Positions 11,716 through 38,462 of a stretch of DNA of 64,000 nt are shown piece after piece; within the stretch, counting starts at the first letter, position 1; every line of letters begins with the position of its first letter. Source of the DNA: Candidatus Velesiimonas alkalicola (GTDB taxonomy: Bacteria; Omnitrophota; Gorgyraeia; Velesiimonadales; Velesiimonadaceae); the NCBI GenBank assembly GCA_013626165.1, contig NDHX01000001.1, positions 100,817-164,816 of the forward strand, given 5' to 3'. A model generated the notes under the pieces. That model ran no database searches, was not told the origin of the DNA, and worked only from the letters and a program-made list of their open reading frames with translations. The position numbers and the translations under genes were made by a program.

Positions 11716-12048
11716 TTATGTCAATCCACCTTTTTTCCTTATCTCACCCTTGCCAAGTGGTTTTTGTAGACGCACTTTCTTATCCAGTTCTTCCGCTGGT
11801 GTTCCGGGAATTATTATTTCTCCATATCTTATGGTTGTTATTGGAATAAGAAGTGACTGGTTTTCTGTGCCAATAGGTCTTTCTATGGTTCCTCCTTTTT
11901 CATCTATCATCTGTTGGTACAGTCTTCCATCAACCCTTAACATATAAGGAGATTCATCAGTAATGGTCCCCCTTACAATAATAACAGCACCTTCAAAATC
12001 GGATGTTGTTCTCCATAACACTAACCTTACCCTTTGTTCTAATAACAT
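11716..12048 (-). CDS. hypothetical protein (possibly PRC-barrel-like)
   Basis: 110-aa ORF overlapping the pdxJ end by 10 nt. No motif I can assign with confidence. Confidence 0.35.
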
Positions 12049-12752
12049 ATTGCCTCTTTCATTTCCCTTACAGCATTTTCTATCCCAACAAATACTGCGC
12101 GGGAGATTATTGAATGTCCTATGTGAAGTTCCTGAATACCTTTTATAAATGCAATCCTTTTAACATTATAGTATGTAAGTCCGTGTCCTGCATTTACACA
12201 AAGCCCCGTTTCCAATCCCTGATTAACCGCTTTTTCAATGGTAATTGCTTCTTTTTTAGCCTCTTCACCCTTAGCATTTGCATACTTTCCTGTGTGTATT
12301 TCAATAAAATCGGCGCCAGATTTTTTTGCGTATTCTATCTGTATAGGGTCTGGGTCTATAAATAGACTAACAGCGATACCTTTGTTTTTGAGTATTTTAA
12401 TAGATTCCTCTAAACTTGAAAATTCGGTAACAACATTTAATCCACCCTCTGTTGTTATCTCCTGTCTTTTTTCAGGAACAAGGGTTGCCTGTTCGGGTTT
12501 AATTTCACAAGCAATCTCCATAATATCCTTTGATAGAGACATCTCAAGATTGAACTTAACTGGAACAATTTCTCTGATAATCCTTACATCTCTATCTTGT
12601 ATATGCCTTCTGTCTTCTCTTAAATGAACAGTAATAACATCAGCCCCGCCAAGCACCGCAAGCATACAGGCAAAAACAGGGTCTGGTTCAAATGTCTTTC
12701 TTGCTTGACGAATCGTTGCAATATGGTCAATATTTACACCGAGTTTTGGCAT
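12039..12752 (-). CDS. pdxJ: pyridoxine 5'-phosphate synthase
   Basis: [18 protein letters not shown]...[18 protein letters not shown]...EGGLNV. ATG at 12752 preceded by GGAGGA. The upstream part of the ORF is not used. Confidence 0.85.
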
Positions 12753-12995
12753 AAATCCTCCGTCCTTATAATATCTTGAAGCAGTGTAACATTTTGATAT
12801 TCCCATATTAAGGATACTACTAAATCTAAATTTTGTCAAGAGCCTGTGAACATAACGAAAACTAAAAATTTGACACGGTATTAAAATTTCAGTATAATTA
12901 TAACATAAGTATTCAAACAAATTTTATTAATTTTTTAAACAAGAAAGAATTTACAGAGCCATGGTGGTAAACAGAAACAAGCGGCCATTTTTCTC

Positions 12996-13024
12996 TTGAC
13001 GGATTCTTAATTATATGCTAATAT
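12996..13024 (+). promoter_or_regulatory. sigma70-type promoter (TTGACG-17nt-TAATAT)
   Basis: -35 TTGACG at 12996-13001, a 17-nt spacer, and -10 TAATAT at 13019-13024. It faces the DUF2229 operon. Confidence 0.55.
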
Positions 13025-13030
13025 CCACAT

Positions 13031-13316
13031 ATTACTTGAGTCTGTCTCTGAGTATACCCTGTTGTATCGGAATTTCAATAAATTCCTATACAAAAGTCAG
13101 GGAGGTCTAAAGGGGAATAATCTGATTTCCCCGGGAGGCAGGAACTTTTTTCTTAAAACTAGGGATAAGAAAAAAGTTTTGTTAGAGGTGTTTTATGGCA
13201 CTTAAACAAAACGGGGTTAGTTTATGAAGGCAGGCTCCTGTGCCTGCTACAGGCAGGAAATAACAAATGTAAAACAACCGAAATAGAACAAAATTTATAA
13301 AAGAGAAGGCTAAAAA
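13031..13316 (+). promoter_or_regulatory. ~285-nt 5' leader with several GC-rich hairpins (candidate cis-regulatory RNA; class unknown)
   Basis: Examples: gcaggctcctgtgcctgc and tttccccgggagg. There is no ORF of 60 aa or more. It lies between the promoter and the first gene of the operon. Confidence 0.3.
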
Positions 13317-15437
13317 ATGGTAAAAAAAATAGGAATACCAAGGGCATTGCTTTATTATAAGTATTATCCTTTCTGGAAGACATTCTTGGAAGAATTAAGA
13401 TGTGAGGTAATTACATCTACACATACCACTCAAAAAATTTTACAAAGAGGAGTTAAATGCAGCATGGATGAATCCTGCCTGGCGCTTAAGGTCTTTTGTG
13501 GCCATGTGTTGGATTTAATTGATAAAGGAGTGGATTATCTATTCATCCCCAGAATAGAGAGTGTAGAGAGGAAGCATTTTGTCTGCACCAAATTTTTAGG
13601 GCTTCCGGATATAGTAAGAAATTCCATAAAAAAGACCCCACCTATTTTAAGCCCAAATATTGATTTTAACCGAAGATTTCCATACCAGTCAATGTTTAGT
13701 GCAGGATGGAGGCTTACCAAAAATCCTTTTAGGATTCACACCGCTTATTGGCGGGCAAGAAAAAAAGAACAAAACTTTGAAAGGACGCTTAAAACTGCAA
13801 CTTCGGTTTCTGAGGTGATGGAACTTATAGAAACAGGCCAGATCAGAAAAGTCAACACACAAACACATCCTGTTTCTAAGGGGGTGAATATCGCCGTCAT
13901 AGGTCATCCATATAATGTCTATGATGACCTTGTCAATCTTGGAATTATAAAAAAATTAGAGAAAAAAGGAGTAAATGTCCTCACCCAGGAGATGGTGCCT
14001 CAGGAGGTAAGTTTTAGGGCAGCCTCCAGGGTTTCAAAAGATATTTACTGGACATATCAAAAAGAAATCTTTGGGGCAAGCCTACACTTTGTAGAGAAGG
14101 GAGTAGATGGCATCATTTTTATCATTTCATTTCCCTGTGGCCCAGATTCGCTCACTATAGAGTACGCCATCAGGCAGATCAAGAATTCTGTTCCAATCCT
14201 TTCTTTAGTGATAGATGAACACCAGACTGATACAGGAATTATGACAAGACTTGAGTCTTTCATAGATTTGATAAAAATGGGAAAAGAAAAGACAACCCCC
14301 GTTAGAAAAAACTTCTCTGATGGCGCTTCTCTGCCTGTGCCACATCTGACACAGCAGACAGGTAATGGCAAAAGTGGACTTAAGATTACATTTCCTCATA
14401 TGGGGGATTACTATGTTTGCTTTAAGAGTCTCTTTGGGACCTTAGGTCATGAGGTGGTTGTTCCTCCGCCCATAACCAAAAGAACCATAGAACTGGGCTG
14501 TAAACATTCTCCCGAGTTTGTATGTTTTCCATTTAAGATCACATTAGGTTGTCTGATTGAGGGGTTAGAACAGGGTGCAGATATTCTTTTGCAGTCAGGA
14601 AGTAAAGGGTCCTGTCGGTATGGTGAGTATAAACCCGTACAGGAGCAAATATTGAAAGACTTAGGCTATAAGTTCAGGTTTATGAGGTTTAGCAGTTTTG
14701 GAGATTTTAAAGCAATAAATAAAAATGTCACAAATTTACAGATCTTGCAAAGGATAAGAATTGCCTGGGCAAAGTTAAGGGCTATAGAAAAGTTTGAAAG
14801 TGAAGTTTGGAGATTAAGTGCCTGCGAGGTAAATATTGGCGAAACCAGAAGACTGTATCAAAAATTTTTGAATTCCTGCGACCAGGCTAATACAAAAGAT
14901 CAGGTAAAGAGAGTTGAAAAAGAGTACTCGGAAAGATTTAATCAGATCAAAACAGTTCCCGGGTTCAGGCCAATTAAAGTAGGCATTATTGGTGAGATAT
15001 ACATAGTTATAGAGCCATATAGCAACTTAGATATAGAAAAAGAGTTAGGTCAGATGCGGGTTGAGGTGGTCAGGCCGCTCTGTTTAGGCCAGACTGTAAA
15101 AGAAATGCTATGCCTGTCACTTAAAAAGACTACCTTTCAAAGAATATCACGATCTTATTTGCAATATAATTCTGGTGCCCATGCCAACGCATCAGTAGCA
15201 GAAACTATTATCTTTGCTCATGAGGGTTTGGATGGTGCAATTCATATAAAACCCCACGCCTGTATGCCCGAGGTTACCGCCATGGGCGCTCTTCATAGAG
15301 TAAGTAAAGATTACAATATCCCGATATTGTTTTTTTCTTTTGATGAGAATGCAACCTCTGTTGGAGTAAGAACACGCCTGGAGGCATTTGTGGAATTACT
15401 TAAAAGAAAGAGGGAAAGAAAATGTATCTTGGCATAG
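13317..15437 (+). CDS. double DUF2229-type (acyl-CoA dehydratase activase-related) domain protein
   Basis: N-terminus IGIPRALLYYKYYPFWKTFLEEL is the DUF2229 hallmark. A second copy starts at ~aa 360 (ITFPHMGDYYVCFKSLFGTLGHEV). Conserved Cys residues are present. Confidence 0.7.
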   Translation: MVKKIGIPRALLYYKYYPFWKTFLEELRCEVITSTHTTQKILQRGVKCSMDESCLALKVFCGHVLDLIDKGVDYLFIPRIESVERKHFVCTKFLGLPDIVRNSIKKTPPILSPNIDFNRRFPYQSMFSAGWRLTKNPFRIHTAYWRARKKEQNFERTLKTATSVSEVMELIETGQIRKVNTQTHPVSKGVNIAVIGHPYNVYDDLVNLGIIKKLEKKGVNVLTQEMVPQEVSFRAASRVSKDIYWTYQKEIFGASLHFVEKGVDGIIFIISFPCGPDSLTIEYAIRQIKNSVPILSLVIDEHQTDTGIMTRLESFIDLIKMGKEKTTPVRKNFSDGASLPVPHLTQQTGNGKSGLKITFPHMGDYYVCFKSLFGTLGHEVVVPPPITKRTIELGCKHSPEFVCFPFKITLGCLIEGLEQGADILLQSGSKGSCRYGEYKPVQEQILKDLGYKFRFMRFSSFGDFKAINKNVTNLQILQRIRIAWAKLRAIEKFESEVWRLSACEVNIGETRRLYQKFLNSCDQANTKDQVKRVEKEYSERFNQIKTVPGFRPIKVGIIGEIYIVIEPYSNLDIEKELGQMRVEVVRPLCLGQTVKEMLCLSLKKTTFQRISRSYLQYNSGAHANASVAETIIFAHEGLDGAIHIKPHACMPEVTAMGALHRVSKDYNIPILFFSFDENATSVGVRTRLEAFVELLKRKRERKCILA

Positions 15438-16414
15438 ATGTTGGGTCAGTAAGCACAAAACTTGTTGTCATTGACAAGGATAGAAATGTTCTAGATGCTC
15501 TTTACATCTCCACAGGAGGAAATCCTATCCTGGCAGTAAAAAGAGGGTTAAAGACAATCCAGCAGAGACTGACAAATCCAGAAAAGATAAAAAGCGTAGG
15601 AACAACAGGCAGCGCCCGTCATCTTATCAGTATTTTAGTTAATGCCTGTGTTGTAAAAAATGAGATTATTGCCCACGCATTAGGAACCTTACACTTTATA
15701 GCAGGGGTTAGAACCATCATTGAAATAGGCGGACAGGATTCTAAAATTATAATTATAAGAGACGGTATTCCCGTAGATTTTAGTATGAATACGATATGTG
15801 CTGCCGGGACAGGCTCGTTTTTGGACCACCAGGCTACGCGCCTTGGAATTCCTGTTGAGGAATTTGGCGATTATGCCCTGAGAGCAAAAGTAAAAGTTGG
15901 TATTGCTGGAAGATGTACAGTATTTGCTGAATCAGATATGATTCACAAACAACAACTCGGATTCAGTAATGAGGATATTATCAACGGACTGTGCGAGTCT
16001 ATTGTCCGAAATTATCTGAATAATGTGGGCAAGGGAAAGGAGATTTTATCCCCTATAATATTCCAGGGCGGAGTAGCAGCAAACAAAGGCGTGGTTAGAG
16101 CTTTCCAGAAGGAGTTAGAAACAGAGGTAATTGTACCTGAGTATTACAATGTAATGGGCGCCATAGGTGCAGCTATCCTGGCTATGGAAGAGACTGAGAA
16201 GAGCGGGTGCCAGACTGATTTTGATTTTAATATTGCTGATATTGATTTCAGGACCAGATCGTTTGAGTGTAGTGGATGCCCAAATTATTGTGAAGTAATA
16301 GAGGTATTAAAAGCACATATAGTTGTCCACAGAGCCGGTTCACGATGTGGAAAATGGGAGGTTCAAGATGCAGAGGAAAGACTTGTCAAGTCGGGGGTGT
16401 ATGACAACAAATAA
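15422..16414 (+). CDS. BadF/BadG/BcrA/BcrD-type ATPase (2-hydroxyacyl-CoA dehydratase activase-like) with a Cys-rich C-terminus
   Basis: LGIDVGSVSTKLVVID..., IEIGGQDSKII, ICAAGTGSFLD, FQGGVAANKG. C-terminal CSGCPNYC...CGKW. 16-nt overlap with the upstream gene. Confidence 0.75.
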   Translation: MYLGIDVGSVSTKLVVIDKDRNVLDALYISTGGNPILAVKRGLKTIQQRLTNPEKIKSVGTTGSARHLISILVNACVVKNEIIAHALGTLHFIAGVRTIIEIGGQDSKIIIIRDGIPVDFSMNTICAAGTGSFLDHQATRLGIPVEEFGDYALRAKVKVGIAGRCTVFAESDMIHKQQLGFSNEDIINGLCESIVRNYLNNVGKGKEILSPIIFQGGVAANKGVVRAFQKELETEVIVPEYYNVMGAIGAAILAMEETEKSGCQTDFDFNIADIDFRTRSFECSGCPNYCEVIEVLKAHIVVHRAGSRCGKWEVQDAEERLVKSGVYDNK

Positions 16415-16501: not shown

Positions 16502-16693
16502 ATGGGAAAATTTCAAGAAAGGTATATTGTAGACGAAAAGGGACAAAAGACGGCGGTAGTTCTTCCGGTTGAAGAGTATGAGGAACTCTTAGAGGATCTC
16601 CACGATCTCGCAATCACCGCTGAACGTCGGGATGAGCCTACAATAGCTTTCGAAGAACTTAAGAAACGGTTGAAAGAAAATGGCTTTTTATGA
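16502..16693 (+). CDS. type II antitoxin (Phd/YefM / RelB-like)
   Basis: 63 aa with an acidic C-terminus. Overlaps the downstream RelE-like gene by 14 nt. Confidence 0.65.
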   Translation: MGKFQERYIVDEKGQKTAVVLPVEEYEELLEDLHDLAITAERRDEPTIAFEELKKRLKENGFL

Positions 16694-16943
16694 GATTCAA
16701 TGGAAGAGATCAGCCGAACGAGACTTACGGAATATCGACCCACAACAAACTCCTCGAATTATCAAGGCTGTCGAATCCCTTACAGATGATCCATTTCCGC
16801 TACAACACCGTAAACTTCGAGGCTCAGAACGAGATTATCGGATCCGAGTTGGGGATTACAGGGTGATCTGCCAAGTGGATACCAAAACGAAAATTGTGAT
16901 CATTTATCATGTCCGTCATCGTAGAGAAGCATATCGCAAGTAA
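16680..16943 (+). CDS. RelE/ParE-family toxin
   Basis: ..DYRIRVGDYRVICQVD...IVIIYHVRHRREAYRK. Classic toxin-antitoxin overlap arrangement. Confidence 0.75.
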   Translation: MAFYEIQWKRSAERDLRNIDPQQTPRIIKAVESLTDDPFPLQHRKLRGSERDYRIRVGDYRVICQVDTKTKIVIIYHVRHRREAYRK

Positions 16944-20454: not shown

Positions 20455-20646
20455 ATATGAATCCAGGGTCTTTTTTTATTACTGCTGTTTTATTCATAAT
20501 ACATACCTTGGTATTGGGTGTTCTTTCAGAAAAATATCTTGCAGGTAGAGTATATCCCGATATGAAAATCCCCGTTCAGGACTTGTTCTTGATGGTGTAG
20601 AACAAAAACAGCTTACCAGATTAAAATTACATTTAGGAGTATACTG

Positions 20647-20852
20647 AAATTCCGACATAAGGATGAAAAACTAACTCTTCCCCTTTTCTTAAAAGGGGTG
20701 GCAGACCGAAGGTCTGACGGGGTATTTAACCCCTTTCTTTAAAAGGAATACCTACAAAGCCATGGAGATATTGAATACCCCGTCTGCTACCGCAGACACC
20801 CCTTTACAAAAGGGGAATTAAATACTTGCTTAACCCTTATGTCGGAATTTCG
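20647..20852. repeat. 206-bp element closed by a perfect 17-bp inverted repeat (GAAATTCCGACATAAGG) and holding at least 6 internal GC-clamped hairpins
   Basis: Hairpins CCCCTTTTCTTAAAAGGGG, CAGACCgaaGGTCTG, GGGGTatttaACCCC, GTCTGCtaccGCAGAC and CCCCTTTacaAAAGGGG, between rpsI and tRNA-Thr. Confidence 0.55.
20719..20740 (+). terminator. rho-independent terminator-like hairpin (GGGGT-attta-ACCCC + TTTCTTT)
   Basis: Read directly. Lies downstream of rpsI, inside the palindromic element. Confidence 0.45.
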
Positions 20853-20991
20853 GTTAAGAATATATAGAATTATAACATATATTGTTTTGGTGGACCCTGT
20901 TGAACCTGCCTGCCTTAAGAGAGGGAATTTTCTCTAAACGGTATAAAGCAAAAAATTAAGACTAATTTTTGCCGATAAAAGCAGAACAGGT

Positions 20992-21064
20992 GCTGCTGTA
21001 GCTCAGTCGGCAGAGCACGTCCTTGGTAAGGACGGGGTCATGGGTTCAATTCCCATCAGCAGCT
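20992..21064 (+). tRNA. tRNA-Thr (anticodon GGT)
   Basis: Cloverleaf folds by hand: acceptor GCTGCTG/CAGCAGC, D arm GCTC..GAGC, anticodon stem CGTCC/GGACG with loop TTGGTAA, T arm ATGGG-TTCAATT-CCCAT. CCA is not encoded. Confidence 0.9.
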
Positions 21065-21148
21065 TTAAAAAAATATAAAAGAAAAAATACTTAAAGGCAA
21101 AAAGTAAAGTGACTGGTGCCTGATGCACTGGCAAACAGGAGGTAAAAA

Positions 21149-22351
21149 ATGGCAAAAGAAAAATTTCTCAGGACAAAACCGCATGTAAATGTAGGGACCA
21201 TAGGACATGTTGACCATGGAAAAACAACACTGACAAGTGCAATAACAAAAGTATTATCTAGCAAGGGATTGGCTCAGGCAAAGACATTTGAAGAAATAGA
21301 TAATGCGCCTGAGGAAAGAGAAAGAGGAGTAACAATAAATGTACACCATGCGGAATATCAAACACAGAACAGGCACTATGCACATGTGGACTGTCCAGGT
21401 CACGCAGACTATATAAAGAATATGGTTACAGGAGCGGCACAGATGGACGGAGCAGTATTAGTGGTAAGTGCAGTAGATGGTCCTATGCCGCAGACAAGAG
21501 AACACATACTTTTGGCAAGACAGGTGGGAGTTCCTGCAATGGTGGTGTTCTTAAACAAAACAGATGCAGTAGAAGATAAAGAATTAGTAGATTTAGTTGA
21601 AATGGAAGTGCGAGATTTATTAAGCAAATATGAGTTTCCTGGGGATAAGATACCGGTGGTAAGAGGAAGTGCATTAAATGCAATGAACTGTGGATGTAGC
21701 AAAGATGATTGTCCAAACTGCAAGTCCATACTGGAATTGATGTCAGCAGTAGATAGCCATATACCTGAGCCTGTAAGAATAACGGACAGGGCATTTTTAA
21801 TGTCCGTAGAAGATGTATTTAGCATAAGCGGCAGAGGAACAGTAGGAACAGGAAGAGTAGAAAGAGGAATAGTCAAAGTAGGAGAAGAAGTAGAAATAGT
21901 AGGGATACAGACAGAGAGCAGAAGGACAGTAGTAACAGGGGTAGAGATGTTCAGGAAGTTGTTAGACGAAGGAAGAGCAGGAGACAACATAGGGGTATTG
22001 TTAAGAGGGATAGAAAAAAAAGACTTAGAAAAAGGGATGGTCATATCGGCACCAAATACAATAACGCCACACACACAATTCAAGGCACAGGTATATGTAT
22101 TAACAAAAGAAGAAGGTGGAAGACACACACAATTTTTCAGCGGCTACAGGCCTCAGTTTTTCTTCAGGACAACAGATGTAACAGGAGTAATAACATTACC
22201 GCAAGGAACAGAAATGATAATGCCTGGCGACAATGTATCTGCAACAGTAGATCTGATAGTACCTGTGGCAATGGAAAAAGAGCAAAGATTTGCAATCCGC
22301 GAAGGAGGAAAGACAATAGGAGCAGGCGTGGTAACAGAGATAATAAAATAA
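21149..22351 (+). CDS. tuf: elongation factor Tu (copy 1, tufB-like position after tRNA-Thr)
   Basis: [23 protein letters not shown]. 400 aa. It differs from copy 2 by one residue. Confidence 0.95.
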
Positions 22352-37259: not shown

Positions 37260-38462
37260 ATGGCAAAAGAAAAATTTCTCAGGACAAAACCGCATGTAAA
37301 TGTAGGGACCATAGGACATGTTGACCATGGAAAAACAACACTGACAAGTGCAATAACAAAAGTATTATCTAGCAAGGGATTGGCTCAGGCAAAGACATTT
37401 GAAGAAATAGATAATGCGCCTGAGGAAAGAGAAAGAGGAGTAACAATAAATGTACACCATGCGGAATATCAAACACAGAACAGGCACTATGCACATGTGG
37501 ACTGTCCAGGTCACGCAGACTATATAAAGAATATGGTTACAGGAGCGGCACAGATGGACGGAGCAGTATTAGTGGTAAGTGCAGTAGATGGTCCTATGCC
37601 GCAGACAAGAGAACACATACTTTTGGCAAGACAGGTGGGAGTTCCTGCAATGGTGGTGTTCTTAAACAAAACAGATGCAGTAGAAGATAAAGAATTAGTA
37701 GATTTAGTTGAAATGGAAGTGCGAGATTTATTAAGCAAATATGAGTTTCCTGGGGATAAGATACCGGTGGTAAGAGGAAGTGCATTAAATGCAATGAACT
37801 GTGGATGTAGCAAAGATGATTGTCCAAACTGCAAGTCCATACTGGAATTGATGTCAGCAGTAGATAGCCATATACCTGAGCCTGTAAGAATAACGGACAG
37901 GGCATTTTTAATGTCCGTAGAAGATGTATTTAGCATAAGCGGCAGAGGAACAGTAGGAACAGGAAGAGTAGAAAGAGGAATAGTCAAAGTAGGAGAAGAA
38001 GTAGAAATAGTAGGGATACAGACAGAGAGCAGAAGGACAGTAGTAACAGGGGTAGAGATGTTCAGGAAGTTGTTAGACGAAGGAAGAGCAGGAGACAACA
38101 TAGGGGTATTGTTAAGAGGGATAGAAAAAAAAGACTTAGAAAAAGGGATGGTCATATCGGCACCAAATACAATAACGCCACACACACAATTCAAGGCACA
38201 GGTATATGTATTAACAAAAGAAGAAGGTGGAAGACACACACAATTTTTCAGCGGCTACAGGCCTCAGTTTTTCTTCAGGACAACAGATGTAACAGGAGTA
38301 ATAACATTACCGCAAGGAACAGAAATGATAATGCCTGGCGACAATGTATCTGTAACAGTAGATCTGATAGTACCTGTGGCAATGGAAAAAGAGCAAAGAT
38401 TTGCAATCCGCGAAGGAGGAAAGACAATAGGAGCAGGCGTGGTAACAGAGATAATAAAATAA
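37260..38462 (+). CDS. tuf: elongation factor Tu (copy 2, str-operon position)
   Basis: Identical to copy 1 except A vs V at one position (gca vs gta). Confidence 0.95.

Follow-up and report, generated by a model that had tools for sequence, protein, structure and literature searches.

The operon studied here lies in a 64-kb stretch of DNA (the window) from an uncultured Omnitrophota bacterium and encodes a 706-aa reductase (13317-15437) and a 330-aa activase (15422-16414). As judged from their sequences, these two proteins represent a split form, with a single activase, of the PlsA/PlsR-Ger branch of the radical enzymes of the 2-hydroxyacyl-CoA dehydratase / benzoyl-CoA reductase (HAD/BCR) superfamily. 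Homology and structural modelling support the assignment of the system as a putative ATP-driven Fe-S enzyme of the DUF2229 branch of this superfamily. Its most likely function, to which we give about an even chance of being right, would be the ATP-driven reduction of the ester carbonyl of a membrane glycerolipid to a vinyl- or alkyl-ether lipid. The operon is preceded by a long structured leader which, in itself, is only a lead. Unless stated otherwise, the protein-coding genes and upstream elements of the window for which coordinates are given below lie on the + strand.

An earlier, sequence-only reading of this DNA had proposed two translationally coupled genes, and both open reading frames (ORFs) proved to be real. 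They overlap by 16 nt, and the junction (15410-15437) comprises a Shine-Dalgarno sequence (GAGGGA, 15410-15415) located 6 nt 5' of the activase ATG at 15422, followed by the reductase stop codon (15435-15437). The two Pfam families which that reading had named were both matched in profile searches: the 706-aa protein matches PF09989 (DUF2229) with an E-value of 1e-71, in two stretches and full-length with respect to the profile, and the 330-aa protein matches PF01869 (BcrAD_BadFG) with an E-value of 4.8e-49, as well as the TIGR00241 acyl-CoA dehydratase activase model (200.9 bits vs a cut-off of 125.4, E 2.3e-59). The enzyme class proposed at the time, namely an ATP-driven Fe-S enzyme of the HAD/BCR type, is thereby borne out by Pfam and NCBIfam, together with the conserved cysteines and the fold matches presented hereafter.

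The reductase is composed of two homologous halves (23% identity, E 9e-18). The first one, R1 (residues 1-325, 13317-14291), contains the DUF2229 core with cysteines C54, C90 and C274, while the second one, R2 (residues 354-706, 14376-15437), contains a divergent DUF2229 and an HGD-D-like C-terminus (PF06050, E 4e-10) with cysteines C403, C433 and C649. These six cysteines, three per half, are invariant across 24 homologues with identities of 29-40% to the 706-aa protein. The alignment of these homologues served as the basis of an AlphaFold model that reaches a pLDDT of 83.6 and is confident except for residues 326-353 (14292-14375), a linker with a pLDDT of 33-38 that is predicted to be disordered and that matches the junction of the R1 and R2 genes in the two closest relatives, L084 and L018. 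When the model was compared with the PDB by Foldseek, each half matched HadB/C, BzdN/O, MbdON and DCCP, with E-values of 5e-8 to 1e-5. A sequence search of the PDB with the reductase gave no significant match, so that no structure of a DUF2229 protein seems to have been solved.

The genes of the nearest relatives explain this two-part architecture. L084 (GCA_964570585.1) is a true orthologous operon, in which R1, R2 and the activase are 66%, 69% and 79% identical to their counterparts in the window and the order R1-R2-activase is kept, and there R1 and R2 are separate genes with a 4-nt overlap; they are likewise separate in L018, the next closest relative. Since the two halves are separate, overlapping genes in the orthologue, the 706-aa ORF is a gene fusion, in which the usual alpha and beta partners were joined recently and the disordered stretch marks the joint. 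The sequence-only reading had described the DUF2229 module as internally duplicated: the homology of the halves holds, but what looked like a duplication is the usual alpha/beta pair of the superfamily. Besides, the 706-aa protein is colinear from end to end with a 1385-aa protein in which two activase domains precede DUF2229, the matching part of the latter being its reductase portion, residues 660-1349 (28% identity, E 2e-74), and all six cysteine positions align between the two. In the same line, R2 is colinear with the C-terminal part of P0307. Two more specific identities were tried for the 706-aa protein and rejected, namely DCCP, whose NF040772 model scores 17.9 bits vs a cut-off of 350 and which has six cysteines within one subunit, those of the 706-aa protein being split three and three between the halves, and BzdN, whose NCBIfam model scores 16.7 bits vs a cut-off of 453.8.

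The activase consists of an ATPase core (residues 1-254, 15422-16183) with the ASKHA motifs GIDVGS, GGQDSK and GGVA and the putative cluster-bridging cysteines C126 and C165, and of a tail carrying four further cysteines (16262-16357; F-x-C283-x2-C286-x-N-x-C290-E ... G-x2-C309-x2-W). Sequence searches reveal its homology to HadI (4eht, 1.5e-38), HgdC (1hux, 3.1e-34) and MbdQ, and C126 and C165 align with the HadI cysteines that bridge a [4Fe-4S] cluster in the 4eht dimer. Among the 54 family activases taken from homologous loci, C126, C165 and the ATP-binding motifs are invariant (54/54), and so are the four cysteines of the tail (54/54). The corresponding pattern, C-x2-C-x-[ND]-x-C-[ED]...C, which was derived in this analysis and is not a published family criterion, is hereafter called the Cys4 connector. 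Of the 123 fused proteins with two tandem activase domains N-terminal to DUF2229 (BBD proteins), 117 contain it a single time, in the stretch that links the second activase domain to DUF2229, and it also occurs in P0058, a fused activase-R1-R2 protein, and at the N-terminus of P0069, an R1-R2 protein. Because it is conserved in all the activases and present in the fused proteins, the tail is to be regarded as a connector module of the family rather than as an add-on. Thus, the Cys-rich tail noticed in the sequence-only reading does exist, but it is in no way extra.

The split arrangement is widespread. An exhaustive HMMER search with the reductase yielded 3759 cluster representatives with the limit set at E<=1e-3; at E<=1e-30 there remained 910, which represent the large subfamily of the window protein. 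The top 150 matches are, with the exception of one fused protein, either split halves of ~330 or ~360 aa or fusions of ~700 aa. Of 80 loci taken from GTDB genomes, 57 also contain an adjacent activase gene of the same type, the usual order being R1-R2-activase. As far as sequence relationships tell, the set formed by split R1-R2 and a single activase is a coherent and widespread group, either sister or paraphyletic to the fused enzymes. We know of no characterised member of this subfamily and, to our knowledge, PlsA/PlsR and Ger are the only characterised members of the whole DUF2229 branch; among the 8000 matches listed in a search with a fused BBD protein, there was no named characterised protein. 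Yet another architecture is displayed by P0068 (844 aa), in which an N-terminal FAD/NAD(P)-binding, amine-oxidase-like domain is fused to a reductase half made of DUF2229 and HGD-D.

The sequence-only reading had stated that DUF2229 has no assigned substrate, which is out of date. PlsA/PlsR and Ger, which contain PF09989, convert sn-1 glycerolipid esters to vinyl or alkyl ethers (PMC13159169, PMC8788747, PMC12838417). More precisely, PlsA/PlsR of Clostridium perfringens forms the vinyl ether from the sn-1 ester (Jackson et al. 2021, as cited in PMC9702350 and PMC12838417), and Ger of Thermotoga maritima and Desulfatibacillum alkenivorans forms the alkyl ether from the same ester (PMC13159169, PMC8788747). 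PlsA/Ger proteins are defined by two PF01869 domains, PF09989 and PF06050, and the BBD core, that is, two tandem activation domains N-terminal to DUF2229, is conserved in all confirmed producers of alkyl ethers (PMC13159169). The activity of Ger was seen under anaerobic expression only, and homologues of Ger were reported in the PVC group and in many uncultured phyla (PMC13159169). According to two further sources, Ger and PlsA are indistinguishable by sequence, and the function or role of homologues with a single activation domain or none is unclear (PMC13274423; bioRxiv 10.1101/2022.04.21.487849).

The sequences and models show which domains are present, which ligand residues are conserved, how the proteins fold, how the operon is built and how the families are related, whereas the cofactors, the path of the electron and the substrate are those that we infer. 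The following mechanism is proposed. The activase would form a dimer in which C126 and C165 hold a [4Fe-4S] cluster, and would take up a low-potential electron, for instance from ferredoxin. Upon ATP hydrolysis, it would hand this electron to the fused R1-R2 protein, the Cys4 tail possibly serving as a docking or relay module. The R1-R2 protein would work as a pseudo-heterodimer with one three-cysteine Fe-S site per half, in which the electron would convert a bound carbonyl into a ketyl-type radical. This carbonyl would most likely be that of a membrane glycerolipid ester, in which case the product would be a vinyl-ether or alkyl-ether lipid.

The choice of a lipid ester as the substrate arises from a survey of gene neighbourhoods in about 80 homologous loci. 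In six loci of the Dehalococcoidales type, plsX stands directly 3' of R1-R2-activase. Two PlsC-type acyltransferases abut R1, directly upstream, in L036, and another acyltransferase is found in the neighbourhood in L050. In loci of the Syntrophobacterales type, an MMPL/sterol-sensing transporter adjoins the activase, L027 has an upstream ElbD-like gene combining AMP-binding, PP (carrier) and NAD_binding_4 (thioester-reductase) domains, and a DAGK_cat (diacylglycerol-kinase-like) gene lies nearby in L018. Because glycerolipid genes recur in this way beside the operon in unrelated lineages, a lipid ester is considered as the most likely substrate. Regarding the gene order of the Dehalococcoidales-type loci, L056, L058, L063, L075, L078 and L082 have a conserved succession of M20 peptidase, R1, R2, activase, plsX, thioredoxin and thioredoxin reductase.

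The alternative that has to be weighed against ether-lipid synthesis leaves the enzyme class untouched: the split R1-R2 and single-activase systems might be paralogues acting on a different substrate, be it some other carbonyl compound, an unsaturated one or, as in the case of DCCP, a small molecule. This reading is considered as possible, with a clearly smaller share of our confidence than the lipid one, and several observations speak for it and against an ether-lipid synthase. In a neighbour-joining tree of R1 domains rooted on R2, which covered a narrow group of sampled BBD proteins and had no characterised PlsA, PlsR or Ger sequence among its taxa, the activase-fused proteins form a clade devoid of split-type sequences in 100/100 bootstraps, and the R1 of the window falls outside this clade, next to L018. 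The identity between the R1 of the window and fused-type R1 domains is only ~30%, the corresponding figure for the proteins being ~28-30%. Whereas every characterised member has two fused activase domains, the window system has a single PF01869 domain, borne by a 330-aa protein of its own whose tail holds the connector, and single-activase versions have been questioned as functional ether synthases (bioRxiv 10.1101/2022.04.21.487849). Bacillota are reported to possess activation-domain-less PlsA homologues besides PlsA/Ger, and their role is called unclear (PMC13274423); this co-occurrence suggests paralogy and possibly another substrate. Besides, there is no lipid gene near the operon in the 64-kb window, nor in the orthologous locus L084. 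Finally, about 16 Bacillota loci have the genes placed downstream of dacF-spoIIAA-spoIIAB-sigF-spoVAC/D/E, with spoVAF on one side and lysA on the other, a position within the sporulation cluster that suggests forespore expression, but that may reflect inherited synteny rather than function. Against the paralogue stand the recurrence of adjacent glycerolipid genes in at least four unrelated lineages, the proposed catalytic cysteines and the Cys4 connector, which are the same as in the fused enzymes, and the lack of recurrent acyl-CoA metabolism genes in the neighbourhoods of the ~80 loci; in the particular case of a DCCP-like function, the score of the DCCP model lies far below its cut-off (17.9 vs 350 bits). 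Ether-lipid formation from a glycerolipid ester is therefore kept as the favoured function. As for the insertions between spoVAF and lysA, they include L004, L007, L010, L012, L014, L050, L052, L055 and L065, where the genes have the same orientation and often short gaps.

Upstream of the operon, the spacer between the divergent pdxJ gene (12039-12752, - strand; start taken from the called gene in L001) and R1 amounts to 564 nt, which places it among the longest non-coding stretches of a window whose median gap is 17.5 nt. Two tandem promoter-like sites are located there. P1 (12870-12898) is a perfect sigma-70 consensus, TTGACA-17-TATAAT, and the window has no other 12/12 match, whichever strand is considered; P1 stands back to back with a pdxJ promoter-like site (12811-12839, - strand; TTGACA-17-TATCCT, 10/12). 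P2 (12996-13024), 126 nt further downstream, reads TTGACG-17-TAATAT with a TGn extension and matches the consensus at 9/12 positions, its predicted start (~13031) coinciding with the onset of RNA structure (~13033). It was P2 that the sequence-only reading had called the operon's own strong promoter. The site is there, with its TGn extension, but it is only a 9/12 match, of a quality that is slightly enriched in this AT-rich region (21 matches vs 13.4 +/- 3.3 in shuffles), and a 12/12 site stands upstream of it. The three 11/12 matches of the + strand are all intergenic and lie just 5' of genes. Taken together, these sites make it probable that transcription of the operon starts at the tandem promoters (12870, 12996), either one or both, and runs through a long, lineage-specific leader, which would be ~285 or ~412 nt long because P2, P1 or both could fire.

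The structured nature of the leader, already pointed out in the sequence-only reading, was confirmed, the RNA of 13031-13330 folding better than its shuffled versions (z -4.5, 0/200). The signal is confined to ~13033-13262, with ~13040-13270 as an alternative delimitation, the P1-P2 spacer being unstructured (z 0.3), and the antisense strand folds less well than the sense strand (z -3.3 vs -4.5). The predicted elements are, in order, the hairpin H0 (13033-13054), H1 (13057-13102; -18.1 kcal/mol, z -5.2), H2 (13105-13139; z -3.6), H3 (13141-13180; z -4.3), which is an AU-rich stem of 15 pairs, based on a perfect 13-nt inverted repeat and followed by UUUUGUU, the hairpin H4 (13181-13208), and H5/H6 (13229-13262), two competing, GC-rich and mutually exclusive pairings. 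They are followed by an unstructured A-rich stretch (13263-13316; -0.8 kcal/mol, z 0.2) that contains the ribosome-binding site GAGAAGG (13303-13309). The description of the hairpins as GC-rich thus applies to H2 and H5/H6, but not to H1 and H3, which are AU-rich, and the leader as a whole has a GC content of 36.7%, below that of the genes (whole window, 38%).

A search of 12700-13500 against Rfam 15 at E<=10 assigned no family, in agreement with the earlier statement that the leader matches no riboswitch class which that reading could recognise; the top-scoring match, to LhrC, falls on the wrong strand and reaches 28 bits vs a gathering score of 110, and all others are no better than E 0.8. 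As to conservation, neither nhmmer nor an all-against-all blastn of upstream regions found the leader in the orthologue L084, with protein identities of 66-79%, or in the ~80 homologous loci, and a covariance model of H1-H3 run over 82 sources matched the same species only. Likewise, there is no further copy of the leader in the window or in plasmids. The gene upstream of the operon in L084 is a different one and the spacer there measures 109 nt, in L018 the preceding gene overlaps so that there is no spacer at all, and in most other homologous loci the upstream gaps are short or the genes lie inside operons. A scan of metagenomes for exact 21-mers brought up L086, which is alignable across the leader and belongs to the same population, and L088, a piece of the BBPF contig already covered as L001. 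The aligned copies (L001-L003 and L086) are identical to the window except for T/G at 13196 and a single-base length difference at ~12978 and, as all alignable copies are near-identical, no covariation can be counted.

Several local observations were made in and around the leader. The T/G difference at 13196 concerns the ATG of a 10-codon upstream open reading frame (uORF) with a good Shine-Dalgarno sequence, which is present in the window and in L086 and lost in L001-L003; since a strain polymorphism makes or breaks its start, this uORF does not seem to be constrained. Attenuation by a leader peptide was accordingly rejected, the 10-codon uORF losing its ATG in sister strains and a 20-codon ORF at 13224 having no support. 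The 21-nt sequence of the H2 hairpin, GGGGAATAATCTGATTTCCCC (window 13112-13132), is found unchanged at L085:9646-9666 and L087:2495-2515, in unrelated JGI metagenome contigs (45% and 43% GC), where the matches lie in long intergenic regions and extra complementary bases lengthen the stem; this recurrence could be due to chance at this database size or reflect a small recurrent hairpin motif, and the 21-mer has no match in viral contigs. In L084, a 21-nt perfect inverted repeat around a second hairpin (L084:2099-2174; -61.7 kcal/mol, z -9.4) is located directly 5' of R1 and ends 8 nt before the ATG, where a Shine-Dalgarno sequence is not obvious; this element has no sequence relationship with the leader of the window.

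What the leader does can be read in two ways. On the one hand, it might be a lineage-specific long 5' untranslated region or a divergent promoter region, whose hairpins are of general purpose (mRNA stability, or operator sites for proteins such as the 13-nt palindrome) or functionless, a view that we regard as being as good as its opposite. It agrees with the lack of conservation in the orthologue L084, with the sharing of the region by two tandem promoter-like sites and the divergent pdxJ promoter, with the nature of the inverted repeats, which are DNA palindromes that fold on the antisense strand too, and with the polymorphism at 13196 that creates or abolishes the uORF start. Nevertheless, the folding z-scores are strong, the palindrome arm has no significant operator-like recurrence (18 matches vs 11.5 expected) and, the genome being otherwise very compact, 564 nt of non-coding DNA are unlikely to be neutral. 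On the other hand, ~13033-13262 might be a metabolite-responsive cis-regulatory RNA, either a new riboswitch or an attenuator, with H3 and the U-rich tract as terminator or expression platform, which appears as rather improbable. The length of the intergenic region in so compact a window, the stable sense-strand fold that starts right after P2, the mutually exclusive H5/H6 pairings and the very stable hairpin that also precedes the operon in L084 are in favour of such an RNA. It is at odds, however, with the absence of any Rfam family, sequence match or covariance-model match reported above, with homologous loci that are mostly short-gapped or embedded in operons, with the H3 stem, which is almost purely A-U and is not called as a terminator, with a ribosome-binding region left unpaired in the predicted fold, and with leader copies too similar to show covariation; besides, no convincing antiterminator candidate was found within the P2 transcript. 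The sequence-only reading had itself made conservation of the leader in relatives the touchstone, and by this measure its absence from them counts against a riboswitch. A bolder combination was also considered, in which the split subfamily with its trans-acting Cys4 connector would be a distinct radical enzyme whose substrate is other than an sn-1 ester (another lipid bond, a spore or envelope compound, or a small molecule), and which in this lineage would be gated by a new ~230-nt cis-regulatory RNA; we deem it unlikely.

Elsewhere in the window, the neighbours of the operon are of the housekeeping type, namely pdxJ, rsfS, ndk, a ferredoxin gene, murJ, uvrC, a toxin-antitoxin pair and ribosomal protein genes. 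RpoC has 67-69% identity with numerous sequences from Candidatus Omnitrophota. The toxin-antitoxin pair is made of a RelB/Phd-like antitoxin gene (16502-16693) and a RelE/ParE-like toxin gene (16680-16943), which overlap each other and stand directly 3' of the activase, with no terminator predicted in between. Two tuf (EF-Tu) genes (21149-22351 and 37260-38462) are 99.9% identical at the DNA level, their similarity fading within ~100-200 nt upstream, and the first copy is preceded by the longest non-coding gap of the window (20455-21148, 694 nt), located 5' of this copy and of a tRNA-Thr (20992-21064). At gathering thresholds, Rfam reports two tRNAs for the whole window, and no ribosomal-protein leader or other RNA.

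Bacterial ether lipids and the branched glycerol dialkyl glycerol tetraether (brGDGT) biomarkers serve as palaeoclimate proxies, and their producers and the enzymes involved are still being worked out. Workers in this field have pointed out that extra PlsA/Ger homologues lacking an activation domain are present in many anaerobes, with a function that they could not assign. In this context, the present analysis shows that the extra, activase-less homologues of PlsA/Ger are not orphans, but are usually accompanied by their own single-domain activase, which supplies the Cys4 connector of the family in trans, and that this split system is a large and coherent subfamily across Bacillota, Chloroflexota, Desulfobacterota, Omnitrophota and others. 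The new elements are thus the dedicated activase with its Cys4 connector in trans, the large and distinct subfamily, and the recurrent lipid-gene neighbours. If the lipid reading is true, the predicted capacity to make ether lipids extends to the Omnitrophota; otherwise, a new reaction would be at hand. In either case, the role of the activase-less homologues becomes testable as that of a two- or three-gene system.

Compared with the known systems, the window enzyme shares a fold with several members of the superfamily. HadBC/HadI (3o3m/4eht) and HgdAB/HgdC (1hux) come closest in structure to each reductase half (E 4.5e-8) and closest in sequence to the activase (1.5e-38), and they resemble the window system by their three cysteines per subunit and by a homodimeric, single-domain activase with a bridging cluster. 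Nevertheless, the reductase halves are only 12-16% identical to them, the HAD enzymes are made of individual subunit proteins with CoA thioesters as substrates, and the Cys4 tail is missing from the HAD activators, whose aligned chains end at about residue 260. The class I benzoyl-CoA reductases (BzdNOPQ, 8s02; MbdONPQ, 9gai) have the same reductase-half and ATPase folds and an ATP-coupled transfer of low-potential electrons but, unlike the window system, they possess a heterodimeric ATPase module and reduce aromatic rings. DCCP with its activase DCCP-R (6eno, 7yzm) also displays the same fold (E 2e-7) and a separate single-domain activase, while DCCP itself is a homodimer with six cysteines per subunit that hold an [8Fe-9S] cluster. 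There is also a likeness with the PlsA family. PlsA/PlsR (Clostridium perfringens CPE1194/1195, Q8XL48/Q8XL47; single-gene form Enterococcus faecalis Q835P9) is made of the same Pfam blocks, that is, a BcrAD_BadFG activase, DUF2229 and an HGD-D-like second half, its genes are likewise adjacent and co-oriented, and an oxygen-sensitive chemistry of the HAD/BCR type would be common to both; as seen in the fused proteins compared, this family has the same Cys4 connector and the same aligned cysteines in both reductase halves. The two differ in the way the parts are joined, since in PlsA two tandem activase domains are fused to the first half, PlsR being separate or fused at the C-terminus, whereas in the window the two halves are fused and the activase is separate. 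The degree of identity and the position outside the fused clade further set the window protein apart from the fused-type proteins. Finally, Ger (Thermotoga maritima Tmari_0479 / AGL49404; Desulfatibacillum alkenivorans SHJ90043) belongs to the PlsA family and contains the same modules, all carried on one polypeptide (BBDHDDH or BBDHDHDH type) instead of the two proteins of the window, and its anaerobic-only activity is what would be expected from an Fe-S radical enzyme.

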